Source: Phycisphaerae bacterium (lineage in GTDB: Bacteria; Planctomycetota; Phycisphaerae; UBA1845; Fen-1342). From it: a stretch of DNA of 64,000 bases. Where the stretch lies: assembly GCA_050115495.1 (NCBI GenBank), contig JASFQK010000030.1, forward strand, positions 21,255-85,254. The letters are read 5' to 3'. Positions 540 to 23,326 of the stretch are shown here, in pieces. Every line of letters starts with the position of its first letter. Positions within the stretch are counted from its first letter, which is position 1. The notes beneath the pieces were generated by a model. That model was not told where the DNA came from. It was given only the letters and a program-made list of their open reading frames with translations, and ran no database searches. Made by a program: the position numbers and the translations under genes.

Positions 540-1196
540 CTACTTCAACGGCGTTGACCACGCGAGCTGCCGCCAGGGGCTTTCCGCCTGGGTCAACAGC
601 CACTTCACCCCCTCGGCAACGTCCGGACGGGAGTCGACGCCCTTCAACCAGTAGACGGCGCCAAGCGCGAAGTTCCGCCCCAGTTCATCCCAGGAGCGAT
701 AGGCCCCTTGTATCCGCTCGGCAACCCGCAGGATGAGCGGCCAGGATTCCGCCTCACGGAGGTACTCGGCCGTGACACCGAAACGAACCACATCGATCAG
801 ACGCGCCAGGTCCCAGGCAACGATATGGCCATCCTTGAACTCGTCCAGGTTGACCCACACGAAGTGCGCCTGCTGCATGGCCTCGGCCGAGAGGTCCTGC
901 ACGAGAGTCTCGAATCCGTCCTGTTCGAGCCCACACAATTGCCGATGAAGTACGGAGAAATGAGCGTTGTGGCCTTCGTTCTCCAGCCAATCAATCTGGC
1001 GAAGGCAGCCCTCTCGGTTGTGCGCACCCCACCATTCCGCCAGGGAGGTCCGCGCCTCTTGCGCGTCGAAGACGCACCGCGGCAGACAGTCCAGCCTGTC
1101 GCCGTGAGGCACCGCACAACACGCGCCCGCGGCGAGCGCCCAGCGCTGCGGCAGAGACAGCTTCCCCCCACCCCAGAATCGGCCCCAGTTCACCAT
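540..1196 (-). CDS. DUF1266-like protein
   Basis: 218 aa with LAEWWG...WLENEGH, AWDLARLIDVVRFG and YRSWDELGRNFALG motifs typical of DUF1266. Confidence 0.75.
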   Translation of the reverse strand: MVNWGRFWGGGKLSLPQRWALAAGACCAVPHGDRLDCLPRCVFDAQEARTSLAEWWGAHNREGCLRQIDWLENEGHNAHFSVLHRQLCGLEQDGFETLVQDLSAEAMQQAHFVWVNLDEFKDGHIVAWDLARLIDVVRFGVTAEYLREAESWPLILRVAERIQGAYRSWDELGRNFALGAVYWLKGVDSRPDVAEGVKWLLTQAESPWRQLAWSTPLK

Positions 1197-1576: not shown

Positions 1577-2071
1577 ATGGAACCGACACCCGAACTGTCG
1601 TCTTTCTACGCACTCCAACCAAACACGCTGACCTCTGACCGTCTGTACCGCATCTTCATCACGCGGCAGGCGATCTGCGGGGCCTGGGTCGCTGGTCAGT
1701 TCCACAGCCGGGAATCAGCACAGCAGGTCCTGGTCGTCACGCTCGGCCTGCTGAGCTTCCTGGCCAGGCCGCTGGTCAACCGCTGGCTGCGCAAGCGAGA
1801 GGAGCGCGAGCAGTTCTACGATGCGCTCGACCCCGACGGCGCCGAGTTCCTCGAAGCCGACAAACGCAACTTCCGCCTGCTTCCGATGGACATCGACGGC
1901 GTGACCATCACGCAGAAGAAAAAGTTCTCCGGGCACGGCGTGCGCGGCCCCCGGCTCACGATCACCCGCTCGGACGGAAAGGCGCTCAAGCTGGTCGTCC
2001 TCCCGGAACATGAACCCCAGATCGTGCACACCGCCCTCTGCCGGCTTATACCCGGTGCCGAACTGGTCTGA
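1577..2071 (+). CDS. Hypothetical membrane-anchored protein
   Basis: GC3-rich coding-like frame from ATG 1577 (MEPTPELSSF) with one hydrophobic segment; the ORF track extends it to 1346. Confidence 0.6.
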   Translation: MEPTPELSSFYALQPNTLTSDRLYRIFITRQAICGAWVAGQFHSRESAQQVLVVTLGLLSFLARPLVNRWLRKREEREQFYDALDPDGAEFLEADKRNFRLLPMDIDGVTITQKKKFSGHGVRGPRLTITRSDGKALKLVVLPEHEPQIVHTALCRLIPGAELV

Positions 2072-2082
2072 GGATGGCGCCG

Positions 2083-2188
2083 TCAGGCGCGGCTGGGCAG
2101 CGGGACGTCCACCAGCAACGCCGCCGGAACGGGCGGAAACGCCAGCCGCACGCGGTAGCAGTCACAGTCCGCCGTCCTCCAGCCGAGG
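2083..2188 (-). repeat. Duplicated 3' end of the gene at 6610-7851 (gene remnant / att-like direct repeat)
   Basis: 2096-2188 matches 6623-6715 at 88/93 nt. It encodes LGWRTADCDCYRVRLAFPPVPAALLVDVPLPSRA* versus LGWKTADFDCYRVRLAFPPVPAALLVDVPLPTRT*, with the stop at the equivalent position. Confidence 0.95.
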
Positions 2189-2215
2189 ACGTGAAACTCA
2201 CGCCGTCTACCGGCC
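2188..2215 (-). promoter_or_regulatory. Candidate bacterial SECIS element after the SEC-C gene TGA
   Basis: TGA, an 11-nt spacer (GGCCGGTAGAC), then a 17-nt hairpin GGCGTGA-GTT-TCACGTC with G first in the loop. Confidence 0.55.
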
Positions 2216-2389
2216 TCATATGGGTCCTGTGCAAATGTCGCTCTCGCGTTGCGCGAAATACTTGCGGTCCTCCTCGTAGTGACACTTCTTGTATTTCTTC
2301 CCGCTGCCGCACCAGCAGGGGTCGTTGCGATCGAGCTTCCTTGCCGCTTCCGGCGGCCGTGGCCGAAAGAACCTGTCCCAGAATCCCAT
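2216..2389 (-). CDS. Small SEC-C (Zn-binding) motif protein, 57 aa; possible selenoprotein extending to 2207
   Basis: Not in the ORF track. Hand translation: MGFWDRFFRPRPPEAARKLDRNDPCWCGSGKKYKKCHYEEDRKYFAQRESDICTGPI*(TGA)GR*(TAG). SEC-C motif RNDPCWCGSGKKYKKCH; RBS AGGAGAGG upstream. Confidence 0.9.
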   Translation of the reverse strand: MGFWDRFFRPRPPEAARKLDRNDPCWCGSGKKYKKCHYEEDRKYFAQRESDICTGPI

Positions 2390-2511
2390 CCGTACCTCTC
2401 CTGTCGTCGGTTTGCACTCACTCGCCTGTAATCAGGGTTGTCCGTGGTCCGTTGCACCCGAACTGGCCTGTGTCTGACCACCAGGCATCAGGCCGGGGAG
2501 CCACACTCGAC

Positions 2512-2874
2512 TCAGGGCTCTTCCACACCAAGAACGTCGCGAATAGCCTGCTTGATCGTTCCCTTGGGCAATGCCCCGGTCACCATCTGAGGCTTGCCAC
2601 TGCTTGGCACAAAGAGCATCGTCGGAATGCTCCGGATGCCGAACACGGCGGCCAGCTCGCGCTCAACACCTGTATCCACCTTGTAGATGCGGATTTTCCC
2701 GTCGTATTCCTGGACCAACTCGTCCAGGACGGGCGCCAGGACCTTGCACGGCGCGCACCAGTCCGCGTAGAAATCGACGATGCATGGCACGTCACCCTCA
2801 AACCGCCATTCCCTGTTCTGTTCGAAATTGAAGACTTTCTGCAGGAATTCCGCCTTGTTCAGATGTTGCGTCAT
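2512..2874 (-). CDS. trxA: Thioredoxin (core domain)
   Basis: IVDFYADWCAPCK active site and GIRSIPTM cis-Pro loop. Confidence 0.95.
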   Translation of the reverse strand: MTQHLNKAEFLQKVFNFEQNREWRFEGDVPCIVDFYADWCAPCKVLAPVLDELVQEYDGKIRIYKVDTGVERELAAVFGIRSIPTMLFVPSSGKPQMVTGALPKGTIKQAIRDVLGVEEP

Positions 2875-3105
2875 GATGACCTCACGTGAATCAGTGGAAC
2901 CACTCGCGCCCTCGGTGCTGCGGAGCGACGAGACTTCGACGTTGTTGGTGCACTCGACCGAGCCGGCGCGTTCCCCTCACACCGGGCCCTCCCGAAGTTG
3001 GGTCAGGGCAAGAGCGGCAACCAACATGACCGGAACCAGGGCGGGAGCCGCCAGCAGGCGCCTGAGCAAGGAACGGTTCGCGGCGCGTTTCGTGCTGGAC
3101 TGCAA
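2875..3105 (-). other. Candidate selenocysteine-containing N-terminal extension of the thioredoxin (TTG start at 3105, in-frame TGA at 2977-2979)
   Basis: RBS AGGAG + TTG gives MQSSTKRAANRSLLRRLLAAPALVPVMLVAALALTQLREGPV-TGA-GERAGSVECTNN...REVI, in frame with the trx ATG with no other stop. A GCTC-GGTC-GAGT hairpin follows the TGA. Confidence 0.5.
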
Positions 3106-3246
3106 CGTTGTCTCCTGGCGTTTCGCTTCGCGTTCCTGTGCCTGAGCCGGAATGCCTGTCCGGGTCGTGCGAAGCTCGGCCCGGTTCGGGCTTCAACCAA
3201 TGATCAAGGTCACGACGGTGACCGCCGAGTTCCACGGAAGCGCACG

Positions 3247-4602
3247 TCACGCTTGCGCGGCGAGGAGTCCGAGCGCCTCCTCGCAAGCCTCCACGATAGC
3301 GTTGCGCGCGGGGAAGAAACTCTGCCAGGGTTGGGCGCTGTAGCTGAGCCTGGCAAGCTGTTCCAGCGTCAGGCCCTGCTGAATCGCCAGAGTGATCGTG
3401 TCCACCTTGTCGGTCGTGGGGGTTTCGCTGAGAACCTGCCCGCCGAGGACACGTTCGGATTGTGCGTCAGCAACGATCTTGACTTTCAGTTTGGTGGCAC
3501 CTGGCATCATGGGGAACAGGCTGGTCGTTGAGCCGTGGCCGCCCACCACCTCGAAGCCGCGTTGCCGCGCAAGCTCCTCGGTAAAGCCGGTAGCGCCCAC
3601 GCGATACTGGAAGGCGCACGTGGCAGCGCCGTTCAGGAAGCCCAGGTATTCGTCGGCAATCCCGGCGACGTTGCGGGCAGCCACTTTCGCCATGGGAACG
3701 GCATTGGTGGCCAGCTTCCCACCGACCGGCTTGCCATCGATGGCGGAATGGAAATGGCAATTGTCGCCGGCCGCGTACACGTCGGGGAGGCTGGTACGCA
3801 TGCGTGCATCGACGACAATCCCATCACGCTCAACTGCGAGCTTCGGGTGCTCAAACAGGCCGACGTCGGGCTTCATGCCTACACTGAGACAGACGAAGTC
3901 TCTTTCCGGGTCAATGTCGATTGTGTCACCGTTGGTCAGTCTGACCTGGCAGACCTGCTTCTCGACGGTCTCCATCTTCTCGACGCCGACGCCCAGTCTG
4001 AGATGGATGCCCTTCTCGACGAGAACGTCGTGCAGGGGCATCGCCATGTCTTCGTCGATCATGTTCGGCAGAACGTGGTTGGCGATATCGACGAGGTGCG
4101 TGTCGAGCCCCTTCTGTCGGTAGGCTTGGGCCTGCTCGATGCCGATGGCGCCGGCGCCGATTACTGCTACTCTCCTGGCCCGTGCCTGGACGCGGCCAAT
4201 CAGGGCGAGCATGTCGCCTTGGGTCTTTATGGTGAAGACGTTCCGGGCGGTCGCGCCGGGGATTGAAGGTCTGACCGGGACGGCGCCCGTTGCGAGGAAG
4301 AGTGTCTTGTAGCGAAAGACGGTTCCATCCGAGCCGGTCACCTCCTTGTCATCGAAGTTGACGTTGACGGCGTGAGTACGTACGAGGTTGACACCGACGT
4401 CGGTGACAAGCGAGTCCTTCTTGTACACCCTCTCGTGTTCGAAGAGCCCCTCAATCGCGTAGGGGATAGCGCAGTAAACCATCGAGTGCTCTTCCGGCCT
4501 GAGCATCGTGATGCTGGTCTCTAGCCGCAGCTTCCTGAGGGTCCGGCTGAACGTGATTCCGGCTGGTCCGCCGCCGATCACGAGTACATCTGACGTTACC
4601 AT
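3247..4602 (-). CDS. FAD-dependent pyridine nucleotide-disulfide oxidoreductase (NADH oxidase / CoA-disulfide reductase family)
   Basis: GGGPAG FAD motif, single redox Cys in YCAIPY, GAGAIG NAD(P) motif, TSLPDVYAAGD, C-terminal dimerisation domain. Confidence 0.9.
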   Translation of the reverse strand: MVTSDVLVIGGGPAGITFSRTLRKLRLETSITMLRPEEHSMVYCAIPYAIEGLFEHERVYKKDSLVTDVGVNLVRTHAVNVNFDDKEVTGSDGTVFRYKTLFLATGAVPVRPSIPGATARNVFTIKTQGDMLALIGRVQARARRVAVIGAGAIGIEQAQAYRQKGLDTHLVDIANHVLPNMIDEDMAMPLHDVLVEKGIHLRLGVGVEKMETVEKQVCQVRLTNGDTIDIDPERDFVCLSVGMKPDVGLFEHPKLAVERDGIVVDARMRTSLPDVYAAGDNCHFHSAIDGKPVGGKLATNAVPMAKVAARNVAGIADEYLGFLNGAATCAFQYRVGATGFTEELARQRGFEVVGGHGSTTSLFPMMPGATKLKVKIVADAQSERVLGGQVLSETPTTDKVDTITLAIQQGLTLEQLARLSYSAQPWQSFFPARNAIVEACEEALGLLAAQA

Positions 4603-4682
4603 CTGCGGAAAGCTCCCTGCTCGTCTGTACGGGTGTCGCCGTCGCTAAAGCGTCCGCCGCGAGCACACTACGCAGCCTGTTC

Positions 4683-4698
4683 TGCAATGCGCGCGCCG
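4683..4698 (-). promoter_or_regulatory. Sigma-54 (-24/-12) promoter for the oxidoreductase-trx-SEC-C operon
   Basis: Minus strand reads CGGCGCGCGCATTGCA (GG-N10-GC with TTGCA), about 80 nt upstream of the 4602 start and just downstream of a sigma-54 activator gene. Confidence 0.7.
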
Positions 4699-4739
4699 AG
4701 CTCGCAGCCTTCGCCGCGAGGTGGATGTAAACATTTAGT

Positions 4740-4752
4740 AATCAGTGAGTTA
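4740..4752. promoter_or_regulatory. IHF-like site
   Basis: AATCAGTGAGTTA is close to WATCAANNNNTTR, in an AT-rich patch between the putative UAS and the sigma-54 promoter. Confidence 0.5.
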
Positions 4753-4817
4753 CAGCAGAGGCCGCACCGCGAGAGCACGGCTGGGCCGGTCGCGCAACGT
4801 ACGACTACGCGGCGGAT

Positions 4818-4833
4818 TGAACAGAAGTGTTCA
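4818..4833. promoter_or_regulatory. Palindromic upstream activator sequence (putative binding site of the adjacent sigma-54 activator)
   Basis: TGAACA-GAAG-TGTTCA perfect dyad; near-identical TAGACAGAAGTGTTCA at 6333-6348. Confidence 0.6.
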
Positions 4834-4899
4834 CACCGCAGGCTCAACCCTCGGGTCTTATGTCGTAACGATCGCGGAGAATGCTGCCCGGTAGGACGA

Positions 4900-6276
4900 C
4901 TACTCGCGCGGTTCGTGGATTCCGAACTCCGACATCCGTTTGTACAGCGTGGTTCTGCTAATGCCAAGTCGGCGAGCCGCCTTGGCGATGTTCCAGCCTG
5001 CCGCTGCCAGGACCTCTCGCACTCGTTCGGGCAATACGTCCGACCGGCCGCGCGCTCGTGACGAAGCCGGTGGGTCCTTGGCCAGCGGCTCCGCAACGAG
5101 GCCTTCGCGCCGCAGCAGTTCGGGCGGCAGGTGCCTGGGACGAATGAGGCCCCGGCGCGCTTTGACGAACGCATACTCGATAGCGTTCTCCAGTTCGCGC
5201 ACGTTGCCCGGCCAGGGGTGATCGAGCACAAGCGCCAAAGCGTCTTCGTCGAGCCCGTCGATCTCTCTCCCGGTGCGTTCGCGGAACCTCTCGACGAAAT
5301 GCTGGGCCAAAAGCGGGATATCAGCGCGCCGTTCACTGAGCTTCGGCAGCCGGATCGGCACAACCCGCAGGCGGTAGTACAAGTCCTGTCGGAAGTCGCC
5401 GGAGGATACCAACTCCATGAGCGGCCGGTTGGTCGCGGCGATCACTCGAATGTCGACCGCGATCGGCCGCTCGTCCCCCACGCGCTCGATCGTTCGCTCT
5501 TGAAGCACGCGCAACAGCTTGATCTGAATGTTGGCGGATATATCGCCGATCTCATCGAGGAAGATCGTGCCGCCGGACGCCGTTTCGAAGCGGCCTCGCT
5601 TGTCGCGGGAAGCTCCTGTAAACGCACCGCGGGTGTGTCCGAACAACTCGCTTTCGAGCAGGCTCTCCGACAGAGCGGAGCAGTTCACGGGCACGAACGG
5701 CCCGGCGCCTCTGGGGCCCAAATGGTGAATGGCGCGCGCAACCAGCTCCTTGCCCGTACCGGTGTCCCCCTCGACCAGAACCGTCGCGTTCGAATCCGCG
5801 ACCTCCTCGACCAGCTCGAACACGTCCTGGATCGCCTTGCTCTTGCCCATGATGTTGTGAAGCCGATAGCGCTCGCCGAGGTCACGCCGCAGGCTGACCA
5901 ACTCGGTCACGTCACGGAAGATCACGACGCCGCCCCTTGCTTCCCGCTCACCTTCGCGAAAAACGACGCTGCGCATCGCGAAGACCCTTCGTTGCCCGGC
6001 GTGCGTTTCGACGGTCACCTCGTCGAAGTGGGTCGGTTGCCTCTTGGCGATCGACTCCCTCAGACGGGATCCCGGGGCGCAGATCTCCTCGCCGAGGAGG
6101 CAGGGGCATCCGTGGCTCAACGCTTCCGCTTTGGAGATCTCCAGGAGCCGGCAGGCAGCGCTGTTGATACCGATCACGTTGCCGTGGTCGTCGAGCGTGA
6201 CGATGCCCTCGTCGAGGCTGTCAAGGACCGCCTCGAACTCAGCACCGTCCAGTACGTGGTGCCTCGGCCGGGCCAT
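4900..6276 (-). CDS. PAS-domain sigma-54-dependent Fis-family transcriptional activator
   Basis: PAS N-terminus, GDTGTGKE Walker [24 protein letters not shown], Fis HTH ([15 protein letters not shown]). Confidence 0.95.
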
Positions 6277-6332
6277 AGCATCCGCACTCGGTTCTCCGGG
6301 TGAGGTCAGAAGCGCTTCACCCGGCAGGAGTG

Positions 6333-6357
6333 TAGACAGAAGTGTTCAGGTTGAACA
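6333..6357. promoter_or_regulatory. Second copy of the activator-box motif upstream of the activator gene (possible autoregulation)
   Basis: TAGACAGAAGTGTTCA overlapping TGTTCAGGTTGAACA. Confidence 0.5.
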
Positions 6358-6609
6358 GAACGCAGAACGACGTGCTCCTCCTGGTCTCACCCGGCCACTA
6401 TGAGTCGGTTCGCGACAACCTGCTTAACAGCAATGTGTTACAGCGATTCCGCCAACCGCCTGCCTCAGCGCGTAACACGGGCCTCAACATCACGCGGCCG
6501 ACTGGCCAGGCGCCGCAGCTGACCGTCGTCCCGGGGCAGGCCCGCCGGCAATCCATGACGCGGCGTGCCGGCTCGTGCCCGGGACGGGATTGCTCTGAAG
6601 GCGGCGGCA

Positions 6610-7851
6610 TTACGTGCGGGTCGGCAGCGGGACGTCCACCAGCAACGCCGCCGGAACGGGCGGAAAGGCCAGACGCACGCGGTAGCAGTCGAAGTCCGCC
6701 GTCTTCCAGCCGAGGCGCTCGCAGCAGTAGCTGATCAGCTCGCGGTAGCGGCCCATCTCGCGAATCGGTGGAACGTCCGGCCGGCACGATAGCCGCTCCA
6801 CGCGTGCCGCGATTGGCAGCAGATCAGCCTCCGTGTAGTGCGTCCCCAGGTTCTCCGTGAACATGTCGCTCGCCAGCCGCAATCCCGGCGAGATCTCCCC
6901 AAACAACTCCCGGTTCAGAAATACGTCCATCACGACGAGCTTGGCCGGCGTCCGCAGCGGAGCCTTCGTGCCCAACCCGCCGTGCCGCTCGTCCGGATAG
7001 CACGGCTCCGCCCGGCGGATGACCTCGCCGGTGAGGCACGTCACCGACTGCGCTTTGCTGACGCCCGACTCGGCGAGCACGTTGTCGATGATGCCGAACG
7101 GGCCGACGCAGCGCCGCACGGTCGGCAGCGGTTGTGAGCAGAACCCGGTCACCAACGGCACATCGAGCTGCGCCGCCCCCGGATCGATCGGCTCTCGCGG
7201 AAACTCACCGCGCACCTCGCCGGCGTCGTCGATCGTGTAGAAACGCGAGATGCGCCAGGGGACCTGCGGCCGCACGCGTCGCAGGTCGACGAAGCCGCGA
7301 ATCACGGCGGCGTCGATCGTCTCGCCGTCGCCGGACGGTTGGATCAGGTAGGTGTGCACCTGCATGCGGGCCTGGACGCCCCAGATGTAGCTGTTCGCTT
7401 CGTAGGCGGTCTTGCGCTGCTCCAGCCCGACGTCGATGTCCGCCGCACGGGTGTGCCCGTTGACTATCATGTCGAACAGCTTGCGGCTGCCCGCTTCCGA
7501 CTGCATGAACGCCTGGAGATCCGCGAACGCCCGGCGGGCCTCGTCGACAGCGGGGCGTGGGGCCTTGCCTCGGGCCGCAGCCCGCAGGAACAGCCGAATC
7601 CCGCGTTCGCCCGGCACGTACTTCATGGCCCGTAGCGGATCCCTGGGCTCGAGGACTTTCACGAACTTCCACGCCAGCCGGGAATCGACGCCGATGGACT
7701 GCACCAGGTCCGCCGCCCGCACGTCGTGATGCCCGACTAGCGAGGCGATGACCTCGGCGAGAGCGGCCCGCACGCGGGAGAGCACTTCGCGGGCCTTGGC
7801 CTCAAATGGGGAGAGGTTGGCGGCGTTGGCATTATCGACTGTCGTGGGCAT
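6610..7851 (-). CDS. Uncharacterised ~410-aa protein with N-terminal HTH-like segment (paralog of 22112-23326)
   Basis: Long GC3-rich ORF with RAADLVQSIGVDSRLAWK. ATG 7851 is preceded by TACAAT-N6 (leaderless-type start). Confidence 0.8.
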   Translation of the reverse strand: MPTTVDNANAANLSPFEAKAREVLSRVRAALAEVIASLVGHHDVRAADLVQSIGVDSRLAWKFVKVLEPRDPLRAMKYVPGERGIRLFLRAAARGKAPRPAVDEARRAFADLQAFMQSEAGSRKLFDMIVNGHTRAADIDVGLEQRKTAYEANSYIWGVQARMQVHTYLIQPSGDGETIDAAVIRGFVDLRRVRPQVPWRISRFYTIDDAGEVRGEFPREPIDPGAAQLDVPLVTGFCSQPLPTVRRCVGPFGIIDNVLAESGVSKAQSVTCLTGEVIRRAEPCYPDERHGGLGTKAPLRTPAKLVVMDVFLNRELFGEISPGLRLASDMFTENLGTHYTEADLLPIAARVERLSCRPDVPPIREMGRYRELISYCCERLGWKTADFDCYRVRLAFPPVPAALLVDVPLPTRT

Positions 7852-8128
7852 GTGAAGATTGTACCCGCGAACAGGCCGAAACACAAGGGCGTATTAACAC
7901 TCATGGTAGCATCATAAATCAATTGTTTTCAGGTTGTTACGTTATATCAAAGAGATTCTCTGGACATTACCTTTGGAGATGATTATGATCGGCTCTTAAC
8001 GAGCCGCGCGCCGCGTGAACCGTAGTTCGGCCGGCGACCTCCACAGCGCCTGCGGACGCGCGCCACATCGAACGGAGGAGTGTCAGTACCCGCTCGTAGC
8101 GGGTTCCGGCCGACCGAGGAGGAGCGTC

Positions 8129-8707
8129 ATGAAGTGTGCATGTCTCATCACGGCCATCATCGCCCTGGCCATCTCTGCCAACGCCGCCACCGTCTATGAC
8201 ACCGAGGCGGACTTCCTGTCGGTCATCGCGTCCAACTACTATCTCGAAGACTTTGACACCCTCGTCAGCGGCGAGACCTGGGACGCCCCGGGCGCCAACG
8301 GCTTCGACTTCCTCGCCCAGGCCGACGGCGGCGTCGCCGCCCGTAGTGAGGGCGACCCCGCCGCCCCATGCCTCTCGGCCAACTGGGTCGACGGCACCCT
8401 CGAAATCGTCTTCACCGGCGCCCCTGTCACCGCCCTCGGTGCCAACTTCTGCACGAAGCGCTTCATGCACGGCACTGACCAAATGAACGTCATCACGCTC
8501 AGCGATGGTACGGTCGAGCAGTTCATGGGGCTTGGCTTCCGCGGCTTCACGAGCGACGTGCCGATCACCAGCTTCACGCACGTCGGCGTGGATGACCCCA
8601 GCTACGCCTACGGCTGGCTCGACCACTTGTACGTCGGCACGATGGTCCCCGAACCCGGGGCCATCGCGCTATTGTCCCTCGGCGCCCTGTTCCTGCGCAG
8701 GCGCTAG
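8129..8707 (+). CDS. PEP-CTERM sorting-domain secreted protein
   Basis: RBS GAGGAGGAG, signal peptide, C-terminal VPEPGAIALLSLGALFLRRR. Confidence 0.9.
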   Translation: MKCACLITAIIALAISANAATVYDTEADFLSVIASNYYLEDFDTLVSGETWDAPGANGFDFLAQADGGVAARSEGDPAAPCLSANWVDGTLEIVFTGAPVTALGANFCTKRFMHGTDQMNVITLSDGTVEQFMGLGFRGFTSDVPITSFTHVGVDDPSYAYGWLDHLYVGTMVPEPGAIALLSLGALFLRRR

Positions 8708-22111: not shown

Positions 22112-23326
22112 CTACTCCTTCGGAATAGGCGCATATGTGCGGATATCGACGACCGTATGCAGGATCGGATAGCTGGCCCGACACCGGAAGATATCAAACT
22201 CGGTCCGCTCCCAGCCAACCTCGCTCAGCACGTGCCGCACCATCTCCGGGCAACGCGGCACGACCGGATCATGCAGGGCATCCAGCGGCGTACCCAGATA
22301 GGTTACCGTCTCCTGGCTCGGCATCGCGTACGCGAGTTCACTCCGCATGGCCCGATCCGGAAGCAGTGAGTAGCCATACGTGTGTGTCTTCACCAATGAC
22401 GGGTCATATACGCCGTGCGGAACGAGCAGATCCATGACCAGCTCCTCGCACGGCATCGTGATGAACGTGCCACCGCCGGCGCTGAGCTGCTCGCGCCGGA
22501 CGACCACGTTGTGCAGCGTCGTTGCCATGAAGAAGTCCACGCGAGCAGTCCGCCCCACGCCGAGCATGTGCAGCGCTTCCGTCAGATAGTCACCCTCCCG
22601 CTCGACGGACATACTGGGTGGCGGATCGCTGCAGAAATCCGTCAGCAGCCACGGGCTCCGATCAACCTCACCCACGCACATCGAGTGGCTGCGCTCGACC
22701 AGCGCGTGCCGGAAGGCCACCGGCAAGGACTGAATGCGGCGGTTGGCGCGCAGTCCCAGCACGCCACGCATCGCCATGCCATCGCTGGTCTTCGCCCCCG
22801 CGTCATGCTGGTAAATCGTGCAGCGGTACATGGTGGCCGCCTGGAATCCCCACAAGCTCGCATTGGCGCGAAACGCCGCCCGCCGCTGCTTGAAACTGAT
22901 CTGCTCACCCGCTTGGCCGCCGAGCGCGGCGATCATCGCATCGAAGGTGCCGCGGTCGCCGGCATGGTGCTGAACGAAGCGGTCGAATGCCTCGTACGTG
23001 TTCGCCGCCTCATCGATCACCTCGGCCCGGAATCCCTTTCGCCGCGCCGCCTCGAAGAGCTTGCCCATCGATTCCGCCTGCGGGATGTGCGGGACGGCAT
23101 CGAACGGATCCTTGGCAGTGGCCAGCCGGAAGACCTGCCAGGCAAGGGACGTACGCACCTCAAGAACGCGCTGGAGATCGGTCGCCCGTTTGATGGCCGC
23201 CGGCGACGCGGACACAAGGCGACTGATGGCGGCTCGGAGACGCGTCAGCACCTCCTCCGCATCCCTTTCGAAGTGATACTCAGGTGGAGCGCCCGCGCGT
23301 GCATTCCGCGTGTTTAGACCCGTCAT
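22112..23326 (-). CDS. Uncharacterised ~405-aa protein with N-terminal HTH-like segment (paralog of 6610-7851)
   Basis: Shared blocks AGDRGTFD/AGSRKLFD, QRRAAFRANASLWGFQA/QRKTAYEANSYIWGVQA, FCSDPPP/FCSQPLP, GWERTEFDIFR/GWKTADFDCYR. Alternative in-frame start at 23371. Confidence 0.85.
   Translation of the reverse strand: MTGLNTRNARAGAPPEYHFERDAEEVLTRLRAAISRLVSASPAAIKRATDLQRVLEVRTSLAWQVFRLATAKDPFDAVPHIPQAESMGKLFEAARRKGFRAEVIDEAANTYEAFDRFVQHHAGDRGTFDAMIAALGGQAGEQISFKQRRAAFRANASLWGFQAATMYRCTIYQHDAGAKTSDGMAMRGVLGLRANRRIQSLPVAFRHALVERSHSMCVGEVDRSPWLLTDFCSDPPPSMSVEREGDYLTEALHMLGVGRTARVDFFMATTLHNVVVRREQLSAGGGTFITMPCEELVMDLLVPHGVYDPSLVKTHTYGYSLLPDRAMRSELAYAMPSQETVTYLGTPLDALHDPVVPRCPEMVRHVLSEVGWERTEFDIFRCRASYPILHTVVDIRTYAPIPKE

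Follow-up and report, generated by a model that had tools for sequence, protein, structure and literature searches.

A 57-codon SEC-C gene that probably continues through UGA to encode a 60-residue selenoprotein in a sigma-54 operon of a Phycisphaerae bacterium

Introduction

Does a small bacterial gene that seems to end at TGA in fact continue through this codon as a selenoprotein? The question is raised by a stretch of 64,000 nucleotides (nt) from a Phycisphaerae bacterium (contig JASFQK010000030.1 of assembly GCA_050115495.1, positions 21,255 to 85,254; hereafter the window), in which a sequence-only reading had recognised, on the minus strand, a sigma-54 activator, a flavin disulfide reductase, a thioredoxin and a 57-residue SEC-C protein, in that order, and had proposed that the last two are hidden selenoproteins of a redox relay. 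All of these elements are present, and the two in-frame TGA codons do stand in the contexts REGPV-TGA-G (thioredoxin) and CTGPI-TGA-G (SEC-C). Here we report that the 57-codon SEC-C gene probably (about 0.7 in our estimate) continues through UGA to give a 60-residue selenoprotein with a predicted redox pair, within a sigma-54 operon. That its family reads UGA as selenocysteine (Sec) we hold, on comparative evidence, with high confidence. The features of the gene are the following.

2216..2389, minus strand: SEC-C open reading frame (ORF) up to the TGA, 57 codons
2207..2389, minus strand: SEC-C selenoprotein gene with the TGA read as Sec, 60 residues
2216..2218, minus strand: the TGA, very likely Sec58
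2188..2204, minus strand: putative selenocysteine insertion sequence (SECIS) hairpin, 7-base-pair (bp) stem and GTT loop, beyond the true stop
2397..2403, minus strand: Shine-Dalgarno (SD)-like site of the SEC-C gene

Results

A family of short SEC-C proteins ending at TGA

The SEC-C product has an N-terminal basic and hydrophobic segment, a knuckle formed by C25-C27-C36-H37 and a predicted helix at 38-53, and its tail reads C53-x4-U58-G-R before a TAG stop. The SEC-C domain matches PF02810 with 46.4 bits, and CxC-x8-C[HC] is present together with the Ser and the aromatic residue, columns that are invariant in the family alignment. An AlphaFold2 model places the knuckle first, then a helix up to Cys53 and a flexible tail; Foldseek searches gave no match at E<=0.001 and only weak ones, to 9l6b and 2i9w.

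A protein search with this product gave 610 matches among 627 candidates, and 91 of the best 120, which were listed, are short proteins ending 3-5 residues past a Cys. Metagenome contigs were scanned with a pattern that fixes the tail Cys but leaves the stop codon free, giving 53 loci; a contig scan with the 57-residue protein as query was dominated by the knuckles of SecA and methionine aminopeptidase and returned one family member in 80 loci. Genome samples were searched with a profile made from a 69-sequence alignment of the Cys-tail proteins. Matches were found in at least 3 of 301 genomes of the window's own phylum (one being a longer, unrelated protein), in at least 23 of 351 in the phylum of genome G362 and in at least 37 of 201 in that of G361, all of these being lower bounds because scoring was limited to 18-32 candidates in each genome. 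Another 13 loci came from a DNA search of 279 genomes of the order. A locus entered the tally if it scored 64 bits or more, its tail did not exceed 35 residues, 45 nt of downstream sequence were available and it differed from the others over the final 90 coding bases; the tally holds 107 loci and leaves out 7 matches, from one of the genome-sample searches, that had no locus.

TGA is the first stop in all 96 distinct Cys-tail loci, and TAA or TAG takes its place in none. Clustering of these loci gives 24 groups at 70% identity and 8 at 60%, and background TGA use in long ORFs of the same loci is 97/206 and 50/96. The distance from Cys to TGA is 4 in 66 loci, 3 in 29 and 2 in one, and a second stop follows 1-5 residues past the TGA in 96/96 (2 residues in 53, 3 in 27). 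The residues between Cys and Sec vary in this C-x3/4-U tail (KTSS, STGS, GPT), with an additional Cys located four residues before it in Nitrospirota-type members. The G-P-[IV]-U-G motif that the two window genes were said to share is therefore not conserved, the other copy of the thioredoxin reading PGSV, and the likeness is local only. Ten Cys-less homologs end in TAG (6), TAA (3) or TGA (1), with the hairpin in 0/10. The sister clade L163-L172 lacks the Cys, has basic tails and is frequently encoded next to PAS/histidine-kinase genes.

A conserved hairpin and the selenocysteine machinery

The hairpin of the window gene starts 11 nt past the TGA, with a 7-bp stem and a GTT loop. Of the 135,817 TGA triplets in the source genome (G000, 92% complete), 758 (0.6%) have a G-loop hairpin of at least 7 bp at this distance. 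The criteria for a bacterial SECIS (bSECIS), taken from the Fig. 2 legend of PMC13188914 (in part), are a loop of 3-9 nt, a stem of 4-16 bp, G in the first two loop positions and a spacing of 16-37 nt, with an energy of <= -7.5 kcal/mol. The window hairpin falls within them (loop 3, stem 7, spacing 18, -14.8 kcal/mol for UGA+39 nt), and the check for a SECIS is further supported by covariation. In particular, in an alignment of 42 hairpins 98.6% of stem cells are paired, with two-sided changes in 5 of 7 pairs; 0/500 shuffles reach this pairing, a test that kinship inflates, and slid controls reach 40-57%. Other phyla have different stem sequences, with loops that are G-first or G-second. A G-loop hairpin of at least 5 bp is found in 90/96 Cys-tail loci, and the downstream fold is <= -7.5 kcal/mol in 95/96, against 2/11 others. 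A U-tract follows the hairpin in 1/96. An Rfam scan gave three chance matches and no SECIS model, and a terminator and sigma-70 scan gave nothing relevant.

All four components of the Sec machinery that were looked for in the source genome, selA, selB, selD and tRNA-Sec, were found (SelA at E 2.6e-132, SelB and SelD over cut-off, tRNA-Sec at 66.7 bits), and the SelD gene has its own TGA. Over all samples, SelA is present in 52 of 55 SEC-C carriers tested. In one phylum sample 36/37 carriers have it, versus 72/164 non-carriers; in the other phylum it occurs in Cys-tail (11/12) and Cys-less (10/10) carriers alike. Together, the invariance of the TGA, the hairpin and the machinery argue strongly for a hidden selenoprotein in the 57-residue SEC-C gene, as had been proposed.

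In the same genome, a second ARAGORN tRNA-SeC call (C3:95769-95868), outside the Rfam RF01852 matches, is probably spurious. Three proteins with strong hairpins, one SelW-like with CxxU, one with UxxC and one with G-U, on the minus strand of contigs C23, C14 and C32, are likely further selenoproteins; a genome-wide SECIS scan was too noisy.

Observations that weigh against a 60-residue redox selenoprotein

A number of observations count against our reading. Only two codons follow the UGA in the window gene, too short a stretch for homology beyond it. No homolog with Cys in place of Sec was seen among the best 120 and 150 listed protein matches or the 107 loci, so that of the two states looked for at this column, TGA or Cys, only TGA was found, although a Cys homolog reportedly exists for nearly every selenoprotein (PMC13188914, in part). 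The Cys-less homologs are one contrast and not ten, because all belong to one clade. One lineage (L102, L136, L209) has CGA for TGA and keeps the hairpin, and G1001 retains SelA. The comparison of SelA between carriers and non-carriers in the one phylum sample is uncorrected for kinship, and three carriers gave no SelA match, each having another Sec marker: SelB in G665, a TGA-containing SelD with no SelB match in G897, and tRNA-Sec with a SelB-like fragment at a contig end in G1015. The AlphaFold2 model has medium confidence (predicted local distance difference test, pLDDT, 73; predicted template-modelling score, pTM, 0.48), and amphipathicity is modest (mean moment 0.46 against 0.33 for shuffled sequences, 52/69 above; 0.39 in the window protein). 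Outside planctomycetes, the neighbours of SEC-C genes are varied and mostly unrelated to redox (92 of 120 extracted ORFs scanned). Finally, the equilibrium probability of the SECIS is 0.004-0.09 in the window copy, against 0.29-0.94 in that of genome G028.

Some of these points would suit an ordinary stop at the SEC-C TGA, with the hairpin serving as a terminator, in mRNA end protection or to sequester a Shine-Dalgarno sequence: the lack of any Cys homolog found for the Sec position, the hairpin that outlasts the TGA in the lineage that lost it and, in addition, the SD-like 5' arm of the hairpin at many planctomycete loci. However, such a stop leaves unexplained the TGA in 96/96 loci, the second stop 1-5 codons on, the fixed spacing, the G-first loop and the fact that Cys, TGA bias and hairpin were lost together; the near absence of U-tracts speaks against a terminator, and compensatory changes preserve pairing while abolishing the SD-likeness. 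We regard an ordinary stop as very improbable.

The low SECIS probability bears on the window copy itself, where a second hairpin, which the sequence-only reading had not seen, arises from a repeat junction.

2173..2191, minus strand: rival 7-bp hairpin at the repeat junction, overlapping the SECIS 3' arm

This hairpin is the more stable of the two (-11.5 versus -7.2 kcal/mol for the SECIS), and it might hide the SECIS so that the window copy is poorly decoded and mostly the 57-residue form is made. This seems rather unlikely to us, since the window SECIS is intact and the first to form during transcription, and the junction hairpin has its own GG-first loop 31 nt past the UGA, inside the 16-37 nt consensus. 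For comparison, the SelD SECIS of the source genome has a 7-bp stem at 33 nt; no fdh SECIS could be used for calibration because a TIGR01591 search found no FdhA in G000. Efficient decoding of Sec58 in the window copy is therefore still likely in our view, though less so than Sec in the family, because of the junction hairpin.

The thioredoxin and its N-terminal extension

The second in-frame TGA lies upstream of the thioredoxin domain, in the following arrangement.

2512..2874, minus strand: thioredoxin domain (WCAPC); it has an ATG of its own and an SD-like site; TIGR01068, 99.3 bits, cut-off 96.8
2875..3105, minus strand: in-frame N-terminal extension with a TTG start, SD at 3111-3117
2977..2979, minus strand: TGA of the extension, possibly Sec43; TGA in G1015, TGG and a frameshift in G028
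2952..2963, minus strand: weak SECIS candidate of the extension; identical in G1015, broken in G028

The domain has WCxxC and scores above the TIGR01068 cut-off, and the extension comprises a hydrophobic segment (17-35), the TGA at codon 43, Cys52 and a Ser/Thr-rich linker. A hairpin had been reported after each TGA; here the stem has only 4 bp, with a GGTC loop, 17 nt past the UGA (-10.2 kcal/mol for UGA+36 nt). It falls within the minimal bSECIS criteria but is common by chance, a G-loop hairpin of at least 4 bp at such spacing following 17,387 of 135,834 TGAs in the source genome (12.8%), and in G1015 it is not the lowest-energy fold over 50 nt.

The extension's hydrophobic 19-mer is kept in three genomes, and the TGA and frame in two of three copies having the extension. 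G1015, of another family, keeps the SD, the TTG start, the TGA and the frame (with a 12-nt indel), and over codons 14-42 it differs from the window by 13/5/18 changes at the three codon positions, a protein-like pattern. Fifteen identical nt cover the 4-5-bp hairpin in G1015, where third positions upstream are saturated (18/29 differ), and ACG replaces the ATG of the thioredoxin, with no ATG, GTG or TTG past the TGA. In G028, TGA is replaced by TGG, a 2-nt deletion has occurred, the stem is broken and Arg stands for Cys52. G011 and G013 lack the extension. At the thresholds used, the thioredoxin was found in 5/279 and 2/276 genomes; long forms were found in 0 of 280 candidates, plasmid matches span the domain only, and homolog searches found no Cys form of the extension TGA. 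In place of such an extension, the member of the same thioredoxin subfamily in L234 (genome G1277) carries a fused membrane domain, DUF6132, that contains two cysteines.

These comparisons make the hidden selenoprotein proposed for the thioredoxin plausible, with TGA and hairpin in two intact copies and a decayed copy in G028, and they slightly favour Sec43 over a stop; we go no further because there are only two intact copies and the stem is weak. A real stop at this TGA, giving a 42-residue membrane peptide or the remnant of an old anchor followed by a cytoplasmic thioredoxin from its own ATG, falls just short of even odds. It would agree with the thioredoxin start (an ATG with an SD-like site) that the window shares with G028 and G011, the stem of 4-5 bp at a strength seen after 12.8% of TGAs, the changes in G028, the copies without extension, the missing long forms and the lack of a SelA match in G1015. 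On the other hand, G1015 keeps the TGA, frame and hairpin nucleotides despite the saturated third positions, has no standard start after the TGA, and has tRNA-Sec and the SelB-like fragment, and in G028 the TGA, hairpin, Cys52 and frame were all lost together. Indeed, a plain-stop reading drawn from G028 alone was revised because G1015 keeps the TGA.

The flavoprotein, the activator and the promoter region

The remaining elements of the cassette are listed below.

3247..4602, minus strand: Pyr_redox flavoprotein, an FAD pyridine-nucleotide disulfide oxidoreductase like coenzyme A (CoA)-disulfide/persulfide reductases, active site S-x3-C44
4900..6276, minus strand: sigma-54 activator (PAS/sigma54-AAA/HTH_8) with three PAS cysteines, OrpR-like
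4684..4697, minus strand: sigma-54 -24/-12 promoter, GG-N10-GC, with an equivalent in the same position in G028, G945 and G011
4740..4752, unstranded: match to the IHF consensus
4818..4833, unstranded: candidate palindromic upstream activating sequence (UAS), 6-bp arms, similar in G028, G945 and G011
6333..6348, unstranded: second near-copy of the UAS, upstream of the activator

The promoter, IHF-like site and UAS described before are thus all present, and G028, G945 and G011 carry UAS-like and -24/-12-like sequences in the corresponding position. The near-copy at 6333-6348 suggests possible autoregulation of the activator. This protein shares the PAS-AAA-HTH architecture with OrpR, in which an Fe-S cluster is the sensor of redox potential (PMC8359166, in part). 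Its PAS domain has three cysteines as C-x-C-x6-C; relative to the OrpR pattern C-x8-C-x3-C the first two are kept, the third is Ser and an extra Cys lies at +2.

The flavoprotein had been called a single-Cys flavin disulfide reductase, which holds for its active site, where Cys44 is the sole Cys (S-x3-C), but not for the protein, which has 6. Its best NCBIfam match, TIGR03385 (CoA-disulfide reductase), scores 227 bits against a cut-off of 578.8, below equivalog level; the active-site Cys aligns with that of A. fulgidus 6PFZ (E 7e-43), and YCAIPY in 110/120 homologs marks a subfamily of its own. It resembles single-Cys CoA-dependent di/persulfide reductases (PMC7969121, PMC6026696, both in part). 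There is no CxxC, and the best 25 of 63 NCBIfam matches do not include thioredoxin reductase. Because of this likeness to CoA-disulfide/persulfide reductases, the flavoprotein more likely works via CoA than on thioredoxin, and the direct step from it to thioredoxin in the proposed relay is hypothetical.

Distribution, origin and neighbourhood of the cassette

The cassette is bounded by duplications of the 3' end of ORF 6610-7851 that the sequence-only reading had not seen.

2039..2188, unstranded: 150-nt direct repeat, left copy (3' end of ORF 6610-7851)
6566..6715, unstranded: 150-nt direct repeat, right copy, within and just after ORF 6610-7851

These repeats are 84% identical, the cassette has a GC content of 62% versus 67%, and its 81-83% identity to G028 runs from 2183 to 6479 and not beyond. 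The cassette (about 2189-6480) therefore probably entered the locus as a unit, and not recently. The depth of read set X1 over the cassette equals that of the flanks (20.2-20.7), so there is no sign of excision. In RNA library X2, exact-match contigs cover parts of the SEC-C gene, the thioredoxin end and the flavoprotein, and also the activator and ORF 6610-7851, at a depth of 2-4, coverage that DNA carry-over could account for.

Of the 279 genomes of the order, 2 were found to have the whole four-gene set. Others have part of it: G945 the activator and flavoprotein, G011 the promoter, thioredoxin and SEC-C gene, and G1015 the thioredoxin. A search for the flavoprotein was positive in 1/60 relatives and 0/6 same-genus genomes. 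Elsewhere, SEC-C genes lie in orp-like operons or alone. Orp-like neighbours (NifB/NifX, ARMT1, DUF5320, ferredoxin-ATPase) occur at 11 of 45 loci and at 7 of 8 same-order loci scanned, and at planctomycete-type SEC-C loci the operon activators bear the OrpR C-x8-C-x3-C pattern. On these comparisons the SEC-C family is real and widespread, in several bacterial phyla, and the four genes are not conserved together as a relay system.

Two further settings were observed. L227 (G028, contig C10) is a second SEC-C copy of G028, inside an orp-like operon, and in L094, L106, L124, L125, L128 and L138 the SEC-C gene has a pilin gene on one side and a multiheme cytochrome/outer-membrane/formate dehydrogenase cluster on the other. 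In the window, a DUF1266 gene (540-1196, minus strand) and a PEP-CTERM gene (8015-8707, plus strand) border the region. ORF 6610-7851 (minus strand), which a PEP-CTERM gene adjoins, belongs to a Pfam-less paralog family with more than 45 tblastn places in G000, including a second copy at about 22184-23323; the family is possibly a lineage-specific regulator.

Discussion

We propose that SelB, acting on the hairpin 11 nt downstream, would insert Sec, two residues would follow and TAG would end the chain. The N-terminal segment could attach the SEC-C protein to the membrane, the CxC-x8-CH knuckle could bind Fe or Zn like SecA-type domains (the SecA metal-binding domain binds Zn or Fe; 10.1101/613315, in part) and the long helix could keep the Cys/Sec pair away from the metal, an arrangement to which we give even chances. 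More tentatively, the Cys53/Sec58 pair may cycle between selenenylsulfide and thiol/selenol, thereby keeping partner thiols or metal-sulfur clusters reduced, and be re-reduced by the thioredoxin, with the flavoprotein using NADH to supply reduced CoA or remove persulfides, rather than reducing thioredoxin directly. The cycling is suggested by analogy to SELENOS, in which C-xn-U pairs at flexible C-termini form selenenylsulfides (PMC10650576, in part). By analogy to OrpR, the activator would, on balance, switch the operon by redox potential through its PAS cysteines, and a membrane-anchored form of the thioredoxin, 197 residues long and bearing Sec43, may be produced as well. It is in this sense that we infer an NADH-to-selenopeptide relay.

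The main rival to this redox mechanism is that the SEC-C selenoprotein handles metal, with the knuckle and the Cys/Sec tail as two metal sites, handing Fe, Cu or Mo-sulfur species on to proteins of the orp type, or trapping Hg/As. The orp-like metal-cluster neighbours of SEC-C genes, the Fe-S and Mo-Cu-S clusters bound by ORP proteins (PMC6345978, in part) and the extra upstream Cys of Nitrospirota-type members are in keeping with such a role, whereas the selenenylsulfides of SELENOS and the thioredoxins or CoADR-like enzymes near several SEC-C loci point to thiol chemistry; we consider metal handling unlikely. Similarly doubtful, though it would tie these observations together, is a widespread Sec-only family, with no Cys form, that unites the SecA-type knuckle and a Cys-x4-Sec redox tail and acts as a membrane-bound redox or metal relay for orp-type cluster proteins, paired here, in a redox-sensing sigma-54 cassette, with a membrane-anchored thioredoxin with a Sec-bearing linker that in one genome could be made only by UGA read-through.

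Several known systems resemble parts of the locus. SaoC (NF040734), KCU-star (NF033934) and UXX-star (NF041114/NF041211) are bacterial selenoproteins whose Sec lies at the C-terminus or close to it; they are likewise small, cut at UGA and with Cys near Sec, and SaoC likewise has a SECIS beyond the stop, with a 7-bp stem and a G-containing 3-nt loop (PMC13188914 Table 1; 10.1101/2022.07.06.499078; both in part); in contrast to them, the window protein has a SEC-C domain, C-x3/4-U spacing and no Cys homolog found, and it gave no match to their NCBIfam models. The C-terminal metal-binding domain of SecA (PF02810; SecA, YecA, YchJ) shares CxC-x8-CH, Ser and Tyr (10.1101/613315, in part), whereas the window protein is a stand-alone 60 residues with an added helix and the Cys/Sec tail. 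SELENOK and SELENOS are also membrane-associated and basic with Sec near the C-terminus, and in SELENOS this Sec comes after long helices and has an upstream Cys as its partner (PMC10650576, in part); the analogy is functional, homology not being expected, and the SEC-C protein differs in having no transmembrane helix, a metal knuckle and a bacterial SECIS. Desulfovibrio vulgaris offers a parallel in OrpR and its orp operons (PMC8359166, PMC6345978, both in part), which share PAS-AAA-HTH, three PAS cysteines, sigma-54 and IHF, and many SEC-C homologs lie, as in orp operons, beside OrpR-pattern activators and NifB/NifX and ferredoxin-ATPase genes; unlike these, the window activator has C-x-C-x6-C with Ser at the third OrpR Cys and a different palindrome, and its cassette has no orp genes. 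The flavoprotein shares a single active-site Cys with CoA-disulfide/persulfide reductases (TIGR03385; 6PFZ) but forms its own subfamily, has no rhodanese tail and has Cys, not Sec.

The SEC-C/PF02810 family is absent from the 119-family Table 1 of PMC13188914 (2026), and no selenoprotein model of NCBIfam 20.0 matches the SEC-C product above cut-off. Term searches found no SEC-C selenoprotein family in the main text or 4 supplements of deep-Sep or in the main text and one supplement of BSepDB, nor did the passages covered of 10.1101/2022.07.06.499078 and 10.64898/2026.03.03.709296 yield one. A literature search found no paper on SEC-C selenoproteins; it covered Haft and Tolstoy 2025 through review-table rows and NCBIfam models only, with Deng et al. 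2026 outside its scope. A SEC-C selenoprotein with a SecA-type knuckle is thus very likely a new bacterial family, well supported by the comparative evidence, and the thioredoxin extension is possibly a second new selenoprotein. The surrounding regulatory cassette is ordinary-looking and rare.

The family would add to the bacterial selenoproteins a domain never listed among them, and it comprises hundreds of database entries, all cut at UGA, with Atlas clusters of 353, 95 and 62 look-alikes. It would escape both standard search strategies, because no Cys homolog was found and there is no homology past the UGA. If the reading of its TGA is correct, the thioredoxin extension would be a second new architecture. 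As the SEC-C protein is only 60 residues long, direct synthesis and assay are feasible, and such a 60-mer would make it testable what Sec adds beside a metal site of the SecA type and whether orp operons make use of selenium.

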